Origin: Escherichia coli
Lineage (GTDB): Bacteria > Pseudomonadota > Gammaproteobacteria > Enterobacterales > Enterobacteriaceae
NCBI RefSeq assembly: GCF_965641715.1
Contig: NZ_OZ282453.1
Strand: one strand, 5' to 3'
DNA: 64,000 nucleotides
Shown here: one piece after another, positions 31,236 through 36,787 of the stretch
How positions within the stretch are numbered: position 1 is the first letter of the stretch
Layout of the letters: every line of letters starts with the position of its first letter
Position numbers and translations under genes: made by a program
The notes under the pieces: model-generated
What the model was told of the DNA's origin: nothing
Seen by the model: the letters and a program-made list of their open reading frames with translations, nothing else
The model's database searches: none

Positions 31236-31421
31236 AATTGTTGTCTCTTTGATTATGTACAATCATATGTACAAAGAAAAATTCATGCCGCTGATTGTAC
31301 ATTTTGGAGGTATCAGAGCATAGCAGAACATGATCAGTAGGTGTATTTGTAGCCAAAGAACATTTGTACATGCAGCAATCTTTGCTCTATTGACACTGTT
31401 TATTTATACAGTTAAAAATAA

Positions 31422-31441
31422 TACTGTATGCAAACACAGTG
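31422..31441 (+). promoter_or_regulatory. candidate LexA (SOS) box upstream of the dinI-like gene
   Basis: tactgtatgcaaacacagtg fits CTGT-N8-ACAG. Confidence 0.45.
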
Positions 31442-31454
31442 TAGAGGGAGTTTT

Positions 31455-31715
31455 ATGCGTATTGAGATCTGCATAGCCAAAGAGAAAATGACTAAAATGC
31501 CAAACGGTGCTGTGGATGCGTTAAAGGAAGAATTAACCCGACGCATCAGTAAGCGTTATGACGATATAGAGGTGATCGTAAAAGCCACCAGCAATGATGG
31601 CCTTTCTGTTACGCGCACCACTGATAAAGATTCAGCTAAAACTTTTGTTCAGGAAACTCTGAAAGATACCTGGGAGTCTGCTGACGAGTGGTTTGTATAC
31701 TCCAACCATAAATGA
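31455..31715 (+). CDS. DinI-family protein (prophage-encoded; track ORF starts at 31428 but a better RBS precedes MRIEICIAK)
   Basis: [35 protein letters not shown]...[16 protein letters not shown] resembles DinI (MRIEVTIAK...QETWESADDWFV). Confidence 0.7.
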
Positions 31716-31883
31716 AGTTAATGACTATTGTGAGCGAGAAACGCGCTACTACTATATAGACAGACAAGATGCACTTACTGAATAAATACTCATAACGGAG
31801 AAACCAGCTGTATAGTGAACAATAGATTTCCAGTAGCATATTTTTACTTCACTTTTAGTTATTAATATGATAATCATAAACTA

Positions 31884-32018
31884 CGGCTCTGCCTTAAATT
31901 TGTGAGGTTGTTTCGCCTCGAAGGAACTAATGTTAGGACATACGCCACCGTTCAGTCGATGGTAACGCTTCTTAACTAGTGGTCCGCTAAGTGATGCGCA
32001 AAGTGATTGGGCAGAGCC
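31884..32018 (+). ncRNA. candidate retron msr-msd ncRNA bounded by 10-bp inverted repeats (a1/a2)
   Basis: cGGCTCTGCC at about 31884-31893 and GGCAGAGCCg at about 32009-32018 are exact reverse complements, immediately upstream of the RT gene. Confidence 0.5.
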
Positions 32019-32042
32019 GAAACGTTTACAATCCGATAGGAG

Positions 32043-33677
32043 TTGGTTTTGTCGCTACATGATAAATTATTAATGCATAACTTCGCATTAGCCAATAAAA
32101 AAAGCCCTGACTTCATATCTGAACTTCCTCAAATTGAACCTAAACCATACAGCAATGGACATAAAATTAAATGGATAAACCACACACTTACTAGCACTGA
32201 AGTTACTCCGCCTGATAACCTGATTAAAATATGCATATTGATTGAGTCAGGGGAAATTGCTATAACATCAGTAAGTGATATTGCCAATTTACTTGGAGTT
32301 CCTGCTGGCCAATTACTTTATATACTATATCGTAAAAAAGATAATTATCGTACTTTTGAAATAGAAAAGAAGAATGGTAAAAAAAGAGTCATTAATGCTC
32401 CTTGTGGCGGTCTATCGATACTCCAAACGAGACTAAAGCCCGTTCTTGAATATTTCTACAGGCCAAAGAAATCTGCTCATGGTTTTATAAAAGGAAAGAG
32501 CATCATTACTAATGCTGGGATGCATATTAAAAAAAAATTTGTCGTAAACATTGACCTAGAAAACTATTTCGAATCAATAAGTTTTGCTAGGGTTTATGGA
32601 ATATTTAAAAGTAAACCTTTTAATTTTTCTCATCCAGCAGCTACTGTTTTAGCTCAGTTATGTACTCACAATGGAAAATTACCTCAAGGTGCGTGTACAT
32701 CGCCAATATTAGCAAATATTGCATCAGCTTCTCTAGACAAACAGCTCACCCAATTTGCAGGAAGAAAAAAAATATCTTATTCTAGGTATGCTGACGACAT
32801 AACTTTTTCTTTCAATCAGAGAAATATTGATATAATCAAAAAAAACGACGACGGAAGTTATAGTCTTAGTGAAACTATAGACAATATTATTTCAAAAAAT
32901 GGCTTTAAAATAAATTATGATAAATTTAGAGTTCAAACCAGAAATACAAGACAAAGTGTTACTGGCTTAGTGGTTAATGATAAAGTTAACATTAACAGAA
33001 GATATATAAGAATTACACGTTCAATGATTCATAGATGGACAGATGATAAGCTAAAGTATGCACTTCTCTTTGCTACAGAAAAAGGATATCAGGCAAAGGA
33101 TAATAACCACGCAATTCAAATTTTCCGAAATCATATTTATGGAAGACTTAGCTTTATAAAAATGGTTAGAGGGAAAGACTATCCAGGATATTTAAAACTG
33201 ATGTCATACATGAGTCATAACGATCCATTAAAAACCCAAGAAGGATTGCGAGCAATGAAAGAAACAGAAAACTTTGATGTTTTTATATGCCATGCAAGCG
33301 AAGACAAAAAAGACATTGCAATTCCAATATATGACGAGTTAACTAAACTTAAAATTTCAGCCTTCATAGATCATGTTGAGATAAAATGGGGCGACTCCTT
33401 AATTGAGAAAATAAATGCAGCACTAGTTAAATCAAAATATGTCATCGCTATTTTATCTGCTAATTCAGTCAATAAGGAATGGCCTCAAAAAGAATTAAGA
33501 GCAGTTTTAGCCAGCGAAATATCGAGTGGCGACGTAAAACTTTTGACCCTATTAAAAAAAGAAGACAAGGAGGTCGTAAACCTATCATTACCTTTACTTA
33601 GTGATAAGTTTTATATGGTCTATGATAATAATCCTGAAGTAGTCGCCAACAATATTAAATCACTCTTACAACGATAA
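32043..33677 (+). CDS. retron-type reverse transcriptase fused to a C-terminal TIR domain (544 aa)
   Basis: RT motifs NAP, VNIDLENYFESI, TSPILANI, YSRYADDITFSF (YxDD) and retron-specific VTG (SVTGLVVN); C-terminus FDVFICHASEDKKDIAIPIYDEL...NKEWPQKEL is TIR-like. Confidence 0.85.
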   Translation: MVLSLHDKLLMHNFALANKKSPDFISELPQIEPKPYSNGHKIKWINHTLTSTEVTPPDNLIKICILIESGEIAITSVSDIANLLGVPAGQLLYILYRKKDNYRTFEIEKKNGKKRVINAPCGGLSILQTRLKPVLEYFYRPKKSAHGFIKGKSIITNAGMHIKKKFVVNIDLENYFESISFARVYGIFKSKPFNFSHPAATVLAQLCTHNGKLPQGACTSPILANIASASLDKQLTQFAGRKKISYSRYADDITFSFNQRNIDIIKKNDDGSYSLSETIDNIISKNGFKINYDKFRVQTRNTRQSVTGLVVNDKVNINRRYIRITRSMIHRWTDDKLKYALLFATEKGYQAKDNNHAIQIFRNHIYGRLSFIKMVRGKDYPGYLKLMSYMSHNDPLKTQEGLRAMKETENFDVFICHASEDKKDIAIPIYDELTKLKISAFIDHVEIKWGDSLIEKINAALVKSKYVIAILSANSVNKEWPQKELRAVLASEISSGDVKLLTLLKKEDKEVVNLSLPLLSDKFYMVYDNNPEVVANNIKSLLQR

Positions 33678-34121
33678 TTCTCTCACAAAAGCAAATGTGC
33701 AGATTGATGCGTATTAAGTATTAACCTGCACATACAAAAAATTAATAAAATAATATATTTTTCATAACCTGCAGGTAACAATAATATGTGTCGTAACGAA
33801 TAGTTGGATAACCTCTATACCCTATTAACCAACCAATTAACTCTATGTAATCTCGCAGCCTCAAAACCCGACTATTGTTCTCTTAACAGTCAGTTCACGT
33901 TCCATTTCGGCCTGAGCCCCATAACATGGAAGAAAAAACGCCCCCAGTCAGTCCAGCTTTCAGACAATCAGTGTGTCACCTGCCGATAATATTCTGAGTA
34001 GTTTTTTCAGCCCAGGCCTTTCGGACTTTGTACCACTGATTTTATCTTCAAAATCAGCGCGCATTCTTCGTAGTCCAGCAAACTCTTGTATATGACGTTA
34101 TTATGGCTACAGCAGTAACGA

Positions 34122-34215
34122 TTATTCCATAACAGGTACTGTAGGCCACTCAATATCCGGTGCTACTGATGTATCAACACGGTTCAGCAACACCCGATAC
34201 TTTTTCCAGGTTGTT
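34122..34215 (-). pseudogene. 3' remnant of the tail fibre assembly gene tfa (about 31 codons)
   Basis: minus-strand translation [28 protein letters not shown] matches the lambda Tfa C-terminus; no upstream tfa coding sequence. Confidence 0.55.
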
Positions 34216-34326
34216 ACCAGACTCACATTCGTTCATTAATATGTCCTGTGATTTGCGTGCGGTGAGGTAGCCTTTTCCCAACCTCACCATCATCCGGCAA
34301 TTTGTATTTATCACAAACGGCCTGTA

Positions 34327-36723
34327 TCAGTTGTCTGTTGCACCAACCATACCCGCAAATTTGAGCCATTGTCCTGATGGACTTCTGTTACCGCGGTAGT
34401 GATAAACAAGGATTGCATTTGTTACTCCACCATAGTCAGCTTTATGTGATGTGGTTAAGCGAATTGTATAATCACCATCGGGCAGGTTAAAAACTTCAAT
34501 TACAGTCCCTGCTAATTCAACCGCTCCAAACCCCGTTATATTGTTGATGCTGCCCGCATTGAATCCCATCATATCGCCAAAACCAATCCAGTACTTTTTG
34601 CTGAACGCACCATTTGACCTCAGGTGGTTAATAAATGTGGACATACTCATGCCCATTTCGCCGCCAGTTATGGCTGATGTACGTACCGAAATACTTGGCA
34701 GAGCACTACTCTTCACATAAGAGCTCAGAAGATTTATGACTTCTGTTTTCGTATAAGCATTAACGTTAGCCGCAGTCAACGTTATATCCGCAGTGCCATC
34801 AAACTTCACACCAGCAATTTCCCTTGCAGTCTGCAATTTCGTGGCACTGGCTGCGTTACCCGTTGTATCCTGATTGCCTGCCGCATTCACCCCCGGGATC
34901 AAATCTTTTACTGTATAAATCTGCGCCCAGTCCGACTCAAACCCATACTCATCCCGTGAGGAACGATAAAACAGCCCACCATTTTTATAATTGGCCCTGA
35001 TTTGCAACGTCCGGCAACTTCCACCCCCTGTATAGAAGTTTGCAACAATATAGCTGCTGCCTGTCCGGGTGACATTGTATGCACCAGATTTGGCATTCCA
35101 CGGAACGCCTCCCTCTGACTCTGCGTGCACACCGGACGATCCAAGAGCAAAAGCAGAGACATCTGCAGCGGACAGCCTGATGTCTGATTTCAATGCCTTA
35201 CCATTCACCTTACGACCAGATGGAACCCGGTCATTTGCATTATCATTCACCGCTTTCACCGCCATTGGTGTTGCCGCCAGCGATTCACTGTCACTGTCCG
35301 TGGCACTGCTGAGCTGTACCACCCCCTTTCTCGTCGTGCTCGCATCCTCTAGCGCCACGGCAGATGCAATATCCTCTGCCCGTTTTGCTGCTGTCTCGGC
35401 ACGCGTTGCTGCAGATTCCGACGTACTTTTGCTCTGAGCTGCCGCTGTCGCACTACCAGCTGCCTCTGTCGCCTTCGTGGATGCCGTCGTGGCACTGACC
35501 TTCGCCTCTGACGCCTGTCTTACCGCCTCATCTTTTGAAGCAGACGCCGATGATGCTGATGACGCCGCCGAACTGGCGGACGATGCGGCTGCCGTTTCTG
35601 AGGCTCCTGCGCGGGTTTCCGACGCTTTCGCATTCGTCTCAGATGTCTTCGCTGCGGAAGCAGAACTCGCAGCTGCAGTGGCCTGTTCAGTGGCTTCGCC
35701 AGCCTTCGTTGTGGCTGTTGAAGCGGACGATGCAGCGCTTTCTGCCGATTTTCCGGCGGCAGCGGCACTGGCTACAGCCTCCCCTGCCTTCACTGATGCC
35801 TCACGGGCCGATGATGCAGCCGCGGTTTCTGAGCCTGCCGCAGCTGAGGCACTCTGTCCCGCTGCCGTTTCAGAAGACCTGGCGTTCGTCTCGGACGTTT
35901 TTGCCGCTTTCGCGGAATTGCCTGCCGCTGTTGCCGAGGAAGCTGCGCTACTGGCGCTCGAGGATGCGTTCGTTTCTGATGATTTTGCCGCCTCTTTTGA
36001 AGCCGCCGCATCCCGGGCTGAGGTGGCAGCTTCTGACGCTTTCGTAGTCGCGGTGGATGCAGAAGTGGCTGCTGATTGTTGTGACGCTGCCGCATTCGTT
36101 TCTGACGTTTTCGCGGCACTGGCACTGGTAGCTGCCGCGCTTTTTGAGGACTCTGCAGCGGCAGCACTTTTTGATGCTTCAGTGGCCTTTGTTGATGCCG
36201 TTCCTGCGCTGGAAGTCGCTGACTGAGCCGACGACGCGGCCTGTCCGGCTGACGTGCTGGCTGCGCGTGCTGAGCCTGCAGCATCAGTCGCATGGGTTGC
36301 CGCCTCACGGGCTGATGTGCTGGCATCACTGGCTGACTTCTTCGCGGCTGCCGTGTTCTGTGCCACCACGGACGCGTTACGCGCCACCTCTTCCACCATC
36401 AGCTCAAAACGGCGCAGTGCCTCCGGACGGGCATCATCCTCCGTCATGGCACCGAGAAAATCATTCAGCGTACCGGGTCGGGAATCTTCATACACTGTGA
36501 TGGTCCCGGCATGTGACGGCGGGAATCCTTCCACCAACAGAATAACGCTGTACTGACCGTACTCAACGTCCATGCTGTAACGCCCGGCTTCATCCGGATT
36601 TTCTGAGGCCAGCGTGTTCACCACCACCGTGGTACTGTTACGTTTTGCTTTCAGCTGGATTGTGCAGTTCTGTACCGGTTTTCCTGTGCCGTCTTTCAGT
36701 ACACCTGAAATCTTTACTGCCAT
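34327..36723 (-). CDS. side tail fibre protein Stf (lambda-like N-terminus, Ala/Ser-rich repeats, divergent C-terminus)
   Basis: MAVKISGVLKDGTGKPVQNCTIQLKAKRNSTTVVVNTL...EEVARNASVVAQNTAAAKKSA matches lambda Stf. Confidence 0.85.
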   Translation of the reverse strand: MAVKISGVLKDGTGKPVQNCTIQLKAKRNSTTVVVNTLASENPDEAGRYSMDVEYGQYSVILLVEGFPPSHAGTITVYEDSRPGTLNDFLGAMTEDDARPEALRRFELMVEEVARNASVVAQNTAAAKKSASDASTSAREAATHATDAAGSARAASTSAGQAASSAQSATSSAGTASTKATEASKSAAAAESSKSAAATSASAAKTSETNAAASQQSAATSASTATTKASEAATSARDAAASKEAAKSSETNASSSASSAASSATAAGNSAKAAKTSETNARSSETAAGQSASAAAGSETAAASSAREASVKAGEAVASAAAAGKSAESAASSASTATTKAGEATEQATAAASSASAAKTSETNAKASETRAGASETAAASSASSAASSASSASASKDEAVRQASEAKVSATTASTKATEAAGSATAAAQSKSTSESAATRAETAAKRAEDIASAVALEDASTTRKGVVQLSSATDSDSESLAATPMAVKAVNDNANDRVPSGRKVNGKALKSDIRLSAADVSAFALGSSGVHAESEGGVPWNAKSGAYNVTRTGSSYIVANFYTGGGSCRTLQIRANYKNGGLFYRSSRDEYGFESDWAQIYTVKDLIPGVNAAGNQDTTGNAASATKLQTAREIAGVKFDGTADITLTAANVNAYTKTEVINLLSSYVKSSALPSISVRTSAITGGEMGMSMSTFINHLRSNGAFSKKYWIGFGDMMGFNAGSINNITGFGAVELAGTVIEVFNLPDGDYTIRLTTSHKADYGGVTNAILVYHYRGNRSPSGQWLKFAGMVGATDN

Positions 36724-36787
36724 ATTCACCCCACAAAAAAGCCCGCCTGAACCGGCGGGCTGTCATAACACTGTGTTACCTGGCTAA

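Follow-up and report, generated by a model that had tools for sequence, protein, structure and literature searches.

Retrons in which a reverse transcriptase (RT) is fused to a TIR domain were classed as type XII by Mestre et al. 2020. One of them, the Retron-TIR of Shigella dysenteriae NCTC2966 (Addgene 157883), is reported to have been moved as a single-gene locus by Gao et al. 2020 and to give phage protection that needs the active sites of both RT and TIR. The census of Khan et al. 2024 includes “Mestre-1156,” a type XII retron of Salmonella enterica serovar Muenster, for which a 76-nt RT-DNA was sequenced and was weak by PAGE (0.025x Eco1). Among RT-effector fusion retrons, a mechanism has been solved for Retron-Eco2 (type I-C) alone: its msDNA cages the effector, whose release is triggered by the phage nuclease DenB; the authors of that work consider the same mechanism plausible for types XI and XII. 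For type XII itself, neither a structure nor a mechanism was documented as of February 2026, and our search of the PDB returned no type XII structure.

Here we describe a locus in the window (a 64,000-nt stretch of Escherichia coli DNA) that is almost certainly a complete type XII retron. The module appears to consist of its own promoter-like site, which would serve as its promoter, a noncoding RNA (ncRNA) of about 136 nt with msr and msd parts, and a single RT-TIR fusion protein. Taking its identity together with a mechanism in which msDNA restrains a TIR NADase, we consider this the best overall explanation, with a probability of roughly 0.75. The features on which it rests are collected in Table 1.

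Table 1. Features of the RT-TIR retron locus, in coordinates of the window
Feature	Coordinates	Strand	Basis or remark
Promoter-like site (TTTACT, 17-nt spacer, TATGAT)	31843..31871	+	Consensus scan; ends 12 nt 5' of a1
Retron ncRNA (msr-msd), a1 to a2	31884..32019	+	Conserved in 10 homologous loci; homologous to “Mestre-1156” ncRNA
a1 arm (CGGCTCTGCC plus U)	31884..31894	+	Perfect 10-bp inverted repeat, 31884-31893
TTAAAT linker after a1	31894..31899	+	Without variation in the 11 aligned ncRNAs and in retron 1156
msr hairpin (UGAGGU / loop UGUUUC / GCCUCG)	31903..31920	+	Six pairs, 98.5% paired
Predicted msd template	31932..32005	+	Mapped by homology from sequenced RT-DNA of Salmonella retron 1156
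a2 arm (G plus GGCAGAGCCG)	32009..32019	+	Perfect 10-bp inverted repeat, 32010-32019
Shine-Dalgarno-like TAGGAG	32037..32042	+	6 nt 5' of TTG 32049; read from sequence
RT-TIR fusion gene	32049..33677	+	542 aa from TTG 32049
Reverse transcriptase domain	32361..32966	+	Pfam RVT_1, residues 107-308, 2.7e-19
NAxxH motif (NAGMH)	32511-32525	+	Invariant in 26 homologues
YADD	32787-32798	+	Invariant in 26 homologues
VTG	32958-32966	+	Invariant in 26 homologues
TIR domain	33279..33569	+	Pfam TIR_2, residues 413-509, 4.2e-18
Putative catalytic Glu (WPQKE)	33492-33494	+	Aligned to Glu of WTNYE in AbTIR

The RT-TIR gene, its family and its setting

The 544-aa open reading frame (32043..33677, + strand), which an earlier note made from the sequence had read as joining an RT to a TIR domain, is real and uninterrupted. 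Three start codons come into question, namely TTG 32043 (544 aa), favored in that note, TTG 32049 (542 aa), and ATG 32073 (534 aa), used by RefSeq. The homologues start with MSLH... at an ATG or GTG following a Shine-Dalgarno sequence (GGAG or GGGAG before the same codon), and the counterpart of this codon is TTG 32049. We have hence moved the start to this position, which agrees with both the MSLH... start of the homologues and the Shine-Dalgarno sequence.

The top PADLOC match of the protein is RT-TIR_XII (2.5e-187, covering residues 72-543). Further, the protein scores 671.1 bits against a cut-off of 600 with NF042941 (Retron_TIR_antiphage), the curated NCBIfam equivalog for “TIR domain-containing anti-phage reverse transcriptase,” and covers positions 1-463 of the 464 in that model. 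The combination of NAxxH, VTG, and YxDD motifs typical of a retron RT is present, the best HMM and PDB matches are retron RTs, and the solved structure nearest to the RT is that of Retron Ec67/Eco2 (5.8e-42). Among the RT signatures listed in the earlier note, YADD and VTG stand and are invariant in a set of 26 homologues with 40-83% identity; its “NAP” does not hold as a retron signature, for this triplet (in VINAP) belongs to the RxIxxP motif of RT domain 1, and the retron hallmark proper is NAGMH. The C-terminal TIR-like domain it had noticed is recognized by Pfam (TIR_2/TIR) and is closest to AbTIR, with the catalytic Glu aligned; AbTIR, TcpB, and PdTIR were matched at 1e-13 to 1e-17 over about 125 residues. 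In the same 26 homologues, F404, H407, A408, S409, E410, and K412 (FxxHASExK) and W470, P471, and E474 (WPxxE) are invariant.

The locus is an intact copy of a catalogued anti-phage type rather than a new system. The 534-aa form of the protein has an identical sequence in NCBI, where it is named TIR domain-containing anti-phage reverse transcriptase, and the same prfC-adjoining locus occurs in 82 of 5426 complete E. coli genomes, in most of which the gene is annotated as intact; because of these two findings, the novelty assigned in the earlier note must be lowered. Its statement that RT-TIR retrons are a reported anti-phage class was correct, for they appear as type XII in Mestre et al. 2020 and as Retron-TIR in Gao et al. 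2020, and its reading of the locus as a retron with an RT-TIR fusion and an ncRNA is supported by PADLOC, NF042941, Pfam, and the covarying ncRNA described below. A protein search of deposited phage genomes yielded partial matches to the RT but no RT-TIR protein, and a single-protein search of genome contigs gave no match. The matches listed from an alignment-based search of contigs were mostly retrons of other types, together with at least 12 distant RT-TIR loci.

A lambdoid prophage next to prfC carries the locus as AT-rich cargo at its tail-fibre/attachment end, in agreement with the proposed placement in a prophage accessory region next to a decayed tfa gene. The locus is flanked by a DinI-like gene on one side and by recombinase and tfa pseudogenes on the other, the recombinase being frameshifted and the tfa gene truncated. 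In homologous loci the flanks differ (P4-type primase, P2 gpA/portal, and others), while promoter, ncRNA, and RT-TIR gene remain together. Indeed, the neighbors vary across every locus examined and include no conserved additional effector gene, as befits a single-gene system. A matching −35/−10-like sequence at an equal distance from a1 also precedes the ncRNA of the homologous loci in Erwinia persicina and Providencia, where the genes further upstream are unrelated.

The noncoding RNA and the predicted msDNA

The noncoding stretch upstream of the gene, bounded by an inverted repeat in the manner of retron a1 and a2 arms, had been pointed out from the letters, and it proves to be a structured and covarying RNA. 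The arms (CGGCTCTGCC and GGCAGAGCCG) are perfect and lie 116 nt apart. By our own arithmetic, about 0.1 perfect 10-bp inverted repeats are expected by chance per 451-nt stretch, and hence the repeat by itself is no more than suggestive; that 10 other loci have kept both the repeat and the RNA it encloses, with compensatory changes, is far beyond chance. The region from a1 to a2 folds at −49 kcal/mol (z −2.9), and its a1/a2 stem gains one conserved U·G pair (31894/32009) to reach 11 pairs. We aligned the present locus with 10 homologous loci from other enterobacteria; at least 12 distant RT-TIR loci were left out because their ncRNAs, alike in layout, do not have the TTAAAT sequence. In these 11 sequences the 11 pairs of the stem are 99% paired, with double (compensatory) changes in five of them, and in the msr hairpin GAGG/CCTC is replaced by AAAG/CTTT, a double change at two pairs. 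Overall, for the 17 pairs of stem and hairpin, 98.9% of the cells are paired and seven pairs show double changes, as against 0 of 500 shuffles that were as good and 33-47% pairing in slid controls. A permissive-threshold Rfam scan of 31300-34400 detected no retron RNA family; apart from an IS009 fragment below threshold and a chance match to CRISPR-DR6, nothing was returned.

As the ncRNA is homologous to that of a Salmonella type XII retron with sequenced RT-DNA, we predict an msDNA of about 74 nt that would be the complement of 31932-32005 and start with CACTTTGCGC.... In retron 1156, the RT-DNA begins opposite the G in AAAGTG and has its end near GTTAG. The sequence of the msd body is variable between homologues, and per-sequence minimum free energy folds of it show no common topology; the predicted msDNA, unlike classical msDNAs, shows no significant hairpin when folded as DNA (z +0.85). 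For these two reasons we propose no structure for the msd.

The priming of the cDNA could hold a further peculiarity. The nucleotide that follows TTA after a1 is an A, as opposed to the branching G of a canonical retron, and in the Serratia and Yersinia homologues the first G after a1 is found only at the msr hairpin. In the absence of a G at the canonical branch position, priming may depart from the textbook scheme. Other clade-8 retrons that have TTTAAC and no nearby G still produce RT-DNA. When the a1/a2 stem is extended (U·G, U·U, A:U), the invariant A31897 comes to lie opposite a one-nucleotide spacer, just before the mapped template start G32005, which is exactly where the branching G is placed in Eco1 and Eco2. 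On the basis of this geometry, we raise the rather improbable idea that the enterobacterial type XII subgroup (12 ncRNAs compared), and perhaps other TT(T)AA clade-8 retrons, do not use branching-guanosine priming. If true, the msDNA would be linked 2'-5' to an A, or would be unbranched, and the accepted definition of retron priming would have to change.

A possible mechanism and its alternatives

Taking the architecture together with the precedent of Eco2, we propose, at slightly better than even odds, that a TIR NADase is held back by msDNA until a phage attacks, whereupon abortive infection ensues. The RT would bind the ncRNA at the a1/a2 stem and copy about 31932-32005 into the msDNA of about 74 nt, and the assembly of msDNA and RT would, by analogy with Eco2, keep the fused effector in check. 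Damage to the msDNA, or its modification, by a phage activity could then release the TIR domains, which might assemble and hydrolyze NAD+ in the manner of AbTIR, and this hydrolysis would stop the growth of the infected cell. It is from sequence and analogy that we infer the NAD+ hydrolysis, the trigger, and the oligomeric state for the present system.

A more basic challenge to this proposal is that the protein could be a nonretron RT (of the DRT/UG or Abi kind) or a group II intron RT fused to a TIR domain by chance. The group II intron RT and Drt2 models do give weak matches (64 and 34 bits, respectively), and Rfam retron families were not matched, but these scores lie far below the respective cut-offs of 300 and 390 bits, the top matches are all retron RTs, NAxxH and VTG are present, and the gene is preceded by a covarying ncRNA bounded by a1 and a2, of a kind from which a homologue makes RT-DNA. 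The HMM cut-offs and the context thus effectively refute a group II intron RT or DRT identity, which we regard as hardly credible. It is also conceivable, though quite unlikely, that the locus is a decaying, nonfunctional remnant in a degraded prophage end. It does adjoin the frameshifted recombinase and the truncated tfa gene; moreover, in the two most similar genomes, those of strains EC416 and PEC41, the gene is split by 1-nt deletions in two different A9 runs, at 32522-32530 and 32763-32771, which may be true frameshifts or homopolymer errors, and three further genomes have ISSen4 inside it. Against this, the reading frame of the present copy is unbroken with every RT and TIR motif intact, strains with an intact gene have the identical promoter-like site and ncRNA, and in the majority of the 82 carriers the gene is annotated as intact.

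Other alternatives concern the TIR domain. AbTIR-type TIRs produce isomers of cyclic ADP-ribose (cADPR) besides hydrolyzing NAD+, and the closest solved relatives of the present TIR are of this type. Hence, it could act as a signal generator whose cyclic ADP-ribose-type nucleotide activates a separate effector, in the way that ThsB switches on ThsA in Thoeris, and a weak NCBIfam match to the Thoeris type III protein ThcB4 (28 bits) points the same way. We consider this improbable: the ThcB4 match is far under the cut-off of 220 bits, the neighbors differ in every homologous locus, with no conserved partner gene, and Gao et al. 2020 are reported to have transferred Retron-TIR as a single-gene locus. 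We give no greater weight to the option that the TIR acts on a target other than NAD+ (e.g., by nucleic acid cleavage) or only scaffolds oligomers, toxicity arising by another route such as alarmone-dependent MazF. The undocumented mechanism of type XII leaves room for it, and one preprint links (p)ppGpp and MazF with abortive infection directed by TIR domains; in the same work the anti-TIR phage protein Atd1, which eases Retron-TIR restriction of T5 about 10-fold, is a (p)ppGpp pyrophosphatase that weakens Retron-TIR defense. Yet a MazF step could follow NAD+ loss and need not replace it, and none of the 26 homologues departs from the catalytic Glu and the HASED motif of NADase-type TIRs, which argues for conserved TIR catalysis.

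The proposal of an msDNA-restrained TIR NADase bears on a family that is worth study, given that neither its structure nor its mechanism had been documented as of early 2026. As its promoter, ncRNA, and predicted msDNA are well delimited, the present allele offers a convenient native system for examining msDNA control of a TIR NADase, the phage trigger, and the nucleotide that primes the cDNA. For the strain itself, the locus adds a catalogued defense gene to the annotation of its phage-resistance repertoire.

Comparison with known retrons and TIR proteins

The nearest parallels are the Retron-TIR/type XII systems of Gao et al. and Mestre et al., as captured by NF042941 and RT-TIR_XII, which share the clade 8 RT with a C-terminal TIR_2 domain, the single gene, and the upstream ncRNA. 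The Shigella Retron-TIR, likened here by architecture and profile score, comes from the same host genus group (Escherichia/Shigella) and shows no difference in architecture. Many type XII homologues reside in P4-like satellites or P2-like prophages, whereas the present copy is in a lambdoid prophage by prfC. At the level of the RNA, “Mestre-1156” has the a1/a2 arms, the TTAAAT, the GAGGTTGTTTCGCCTC hairpin, and the AAAGTGATTGG before a2 in common with the present ncRNA, but differs from it in the sequence of the msd body. An ncRNA of S. Poona (locus L085) that is near-identical to that of “Mestre-1156” adjoins an RT-TIR protein that is 67% identical to the present one.

Thoeris ThsB, considered as an identity for the TIR part, was rejected on the ThcB4 score (28 against 220 bits) and on the neighborhood of a DinI-like gene and pseudogenes, in which no effector gene is annotated. 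The TIR NAD+ hydrolases AbTIR, TcpB, and PdTIR share the catalytic Glu and the FxSHASEDK motif with the present domain, but they are TIR proteins of stand-alone or coiled-coil type, some of which act as virulence factors, whereas in the present protein an RT carries the TIR as its C-terminal effector. Finally, Retron-Eco2 (Ec67, type I-C1) has an RT of the same clade 8, is likewise a single fusion protein, and has a similar msr layout, with a1, a short U-rich linker, and a hairpin with a UGxxUCG-type loop. The protein reaches only 317 bits against the cut-off of 450 of the Ec67 model NF038237, with the RT part alone (74-378) aligned, and is thus not an RT-Toprim protein. The two systems differ in that Eco2 has a tRNA-cutting Toprim nuclease as its effector where the present protein has a TIR domain, and in that Eco2 has a defined branching G15, whereas the present ncRNA has no G at that position.

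Domain architecture and family of the RT-TIR protein

The 544-aa ORF reported in the earlier note was recovered in the ORF listing, and the TIR-like C terminus proposed for it corresponds to a clear Pfam match: within a single polypeptide, an RVT_1 domain (residues 107 to 308; 2.7e-19) is joined to a TIR_2 domain (residues 413 to 509; 4.2e-18; TIR, 1.8e-10). In an alignment with 25 homologues of 40 to 83% identity, the RT active site YADD, the retron hallmarks NAxxH (NAGMH in the window) and VTG, and the TIR residues F404, H407, A408, S409, E410, and K412 (FxxHASExK) and W470, P471, and E474 (WPxxE) are all invariant. YADD and VTG had been correctly read as retron RT motifs; the "NAP" listed with them falls within RxIxxP of RT domain 1, which does not mark retrons. 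The retron conclusion is unaffected.

Profile searches, suggested as a check on that reading, place the protein in a defined family: in PADLOC the top match is RT-TIR_XII, over nearly the whole length (2.5e-187), and in NCBIfam the protein reaches 671 bits with equivalog NF042941 ("TIR domain-containing anti-phage reverse transcriptase"), whose curated cut-off is 600. The Ec67-type, St85-type, group II intron, and Drt2 RT models were each under their own cut-offs. An identical 534-aa protein, named per this equivalog, is already in NCBI on 105 contigs; its 90% cluster has 795 members, and more than 2,600 relatives score below 1e-30. The closest RT in the PDB is that of retron Ec67/Eco2 (5.8e-42), and our PDB search returned no RT-TIR retron. 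The nearest matches of the TIR domain are the NAD+ hydrolase AbTIR, TcpB, and PdTIR (1e-13 to 3e-17), with its WPQKE aligned to WTNYE of AbTIR; the Glu at this position is the catalytic residue of TIR NADases. The locus holds a type XII retron that is intact and has a conserved, structured noncoding RNA (ncRNA), and we put about 95% on this identity. The earlier observation of an RT-TIR retron is confirmed and its interpretation supported; the system is already known and annotated in public genomes.

In the homologues, the protein starts with MSLH... from an ATG or GTG that has a Shine-Dalgarno sequence ahead of it, and the internal Met used by RefSeq in E. coli (giving 534 aa) is absent from several of them. 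The window codon matching these starts lies six bases after TAGGAG and gives 542 aa, a length also found among database entries (protein P0006). The conserved starts and the Shine-Dalgarno sequence point to this TTG as the probable start, correcting both the RefSeq choice and that of the earlier note.

Features of the retron locus and its surroundings (window coordinates)
Feature	Coordinates	Strand	Remark
DinI-like gene	31455-31715	+	between prfC and retron
a1 arm	31884-31893		perfect 10-bp inverted repeat with a2
TTAAAT	31894-31899		directly after a1
msd template, predicted	31932-32005		~74-nt msDNA
a2 arm	32010-32019		
RT-TIR, longest ORF	32043-33677	+	TTG; 544 aa
RT-TIR, probable start	32049	+	TTG; 542 aa
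RT-TIR, RefSeq start	32073	+	ATG; 534 aa
A9 runs	32522-32530; 32763-32771		within RT-TIR gene
CRISPR-DR6 match	32809-32875	-	sub-threshold; within RT coding region
IS009 match	34165-34235	-	partial
Tail-fibre ORF	34327-36729	-	800 aa

The noncoding RNA and its predicted msDNA

The inverted repeat upstream of the gene is perfect and lies where the earlier note had placed it; as about 0.1 such 10-bp repeats are expected by chance per 451-nt stretch (our own arithmetic), it is by itself weak evidence. Folding and comparison with known covariance models had also been suggested: a 153-nt stretch has a folding energy of -49 kcal/mol (z = -2.9), and Rfam has no family for this ncRNA. The type XII ncRNA is given as not determined in Mestre et al. 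2020. In DNA around ten enterobacterial homologues, from Erwinia, Providencia, Salmonella, Edwardsiella, Citrobacter, Serratia, and Yersinia, the same element lies directly upstream of the RT-TIR gene in every case, in the order a1 arm, invariant TTAAAT, hairpin GAGG-TTGTTTCG-CCTC, variable body, TGCGyAAAGTGATTG, and a2 arm. The aligned a1/a2 stem has 11 pairs, including a conserved U·G, and 5 of them show two-sided changes (e.g., CTCTGCC/GGCAGAG, CTTCGTC/GACGAAG, and CTCCACC/GGTGGAG), while the msr hairpin varies from GAGG/CCTC to AAAG/CTTT. Across the named structure 98.9% of cells are paired, against 33 to 47% in slid controls, and 7 pairs carry double changes; none of 500 shuffles matched it on four of five measures, and only the number of further pair types was unremarkable. 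We regard this comparative evidence from sequence as decisive in arguing for a structured ncRNA. A promoter-like TTTACT-17-TATGAT ends 12 nt upstream of a1 and is kept in the Erwinia and Providencia loci, where the upstream genes are unrelated. The CRISPR-DR6 match from Rfam (23.9 bits against 39; E, 0.075) carries a 41-nt insertion, and we take it to be a chance match.

By definition, a retron primes on a conserved branching G that directly follows a1, usually as TTA-G. Here, 12 related ncRNAs share TTAAAT without change, with no G at the canonical branch position, and the Serratia and Yersinia homologues have no G at all between a1 and the msr hairpin; the absent G is a trait of the whole subgroup and not specific to this locus. 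Extension of the a1/a2 stem by U·G, U·U, and A:U would place A31897 opposite a one-nucleotide spacer beside the mapped template start, a geometry matching that of the branching G in reconstructed Eco1 and Eco2. Priming may use an adenosine or a G elsewhere, or may yield an unbranched product. In the description of Khan et al., the branch nucleotide is "most frequently" guanine, and their census contains other clade-8 retrons (terminal 1190, for example) in which TTTAAC has no G close by yet RT-DNA is abundant (PMC10849725).

For one type XII retron, "terminal 1156" of Salmonella Muenster, the supplement to Khan et al. 2024 gives both the ncRNA and the sequenced RT-DNA; this RT-DNA (CACTTTATGCAAAC...) is 76 nt at 0.025x Eco1 by PAGE (PMC10849725). 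Its ncRNA is essentially that upstream of the Salmonella Poona homologue (L085) and shares every conserved block of the window ncRNA. The start of the RT-DNA lies across from the G of AAAGTG (four bases before a2) and its end close to GTTAG; transfer of these ends by homology predicts the window template. Within the ncRNA, variation is greatest in the msd body, and DNA folding gave no significant self-fold for the predicted msDNA.

Genomic setting

The same 2.1 kb (at least 95% identity) is present in 82 of 5,426 complete E. coli genomes. The three genomes inspected for annotation share the order prfC, DinI-like, RT-TIR, frameshifted recombinase, tfa remnant, tail fibre, lom, and J, and in one of the most similar genomes, PEC41, the prophage extends through tail, head, terminase, lysis, Q, and repressor-region genes. 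This arrangement bears out the attachment-proximal placement beside a decayed tfa and puts the retron in a lambdoid prophage, at its tail-fibre/attachment end. The RT-TIR gene has a GC content of 0.30 to 0.34 against about 0.5 in its flanks, as is typical of acquired cargo. Homologous retrons in other genera (loci L083, L085, L087, L090, L091 at about 1-1700, and L084) lie right after a P4-type primase (Zn_Ribbon_Prim/Toprim_3/D5_N) or in the P2 gpA-portal gap, sites which are recognized defence hot spots of satellites and P2-like phages. These varied neighbourhoods indicate that the module is carried by satellites as well as by P2-like and lambdoid prophages, and since the ncRNA is the sole conserved neighbour of the gene, the single-gene retron of the earlier note holds. 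A protein search of deposited phage genomes returned no full-length RT-TIR.

The DinI-like gene, at the prophage edge in three sister genomes inspected, is not kept beside homologous retrons elsewhere and hence falls outside the retron system. The IS009 match from Rfam (41.8 bits against a gathering score of 117; E, 1.4e-07) aligns the two model ends only; in sister strains, RefSeq annotates the stretch around it as a recombinase with a frameshift and a tail-fibre assembly gene that is truncated. The tail-fibre ORF, with a long Ala/Ser/Thr-rich repetitive central region, is whole in the window; sister strains have it truncated or carry a different fibre in its place. In the RT-TIR gene itself, EC416 (which with PEC41 makes up the two most similar complete genomes) lacks one A at 32529 and PEC41 one A at 32765, each in a different A9 run, splitting the gene in each, and ISSen4 is inserted in three other genomes; these disruptions could reflect recurrent inactivation, phase variation, or long-read homopolymer error.

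Proposed mechanism and relation to known retrons

We postulate that the RT would make msDNA from the predicted template, that the RT-msDNA assembly would hold the TIR domains apart or occluded, and that phage-induced damage to the msDNA would let the TIRs assemble and hydrolyse NAD+, resulting in abortive infection; we give this even to slightly better than even odds. That the TIR instead signals to a separate effector is disfavoured, as no partner gene is conserved; a TIR role other than NADase is likewise disfavoured given the invariant catalytic residues. A dead remnant sits poorly with the intact ORF and motifs, and a non-retron RT is effectively excluded.

To what was known of the type XII system, the analysis adds precise bounds for the promoter, ncRNA, predicted msd, and start codon, covariation support for the ncRNA, and a record of the missing branch G. 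A Retron-TIR from Shigella dysenteriae is reported to protect against phage (Gao et al. 2020), and the phage anti-TIR protein Atd1 partly relieves Retron-TIR restriction of T5. In the related fusion retron Eco2, the branched msDNA acts as a scaffold that keeps the effector domains caged in a trimer, and the phage nuclease DenB initiates msDNA decay, unleashing the effector; its authors, describing types XI and XII as without documented structure or mechanism, consider similar msDNA-dependent regulation plausible for them.
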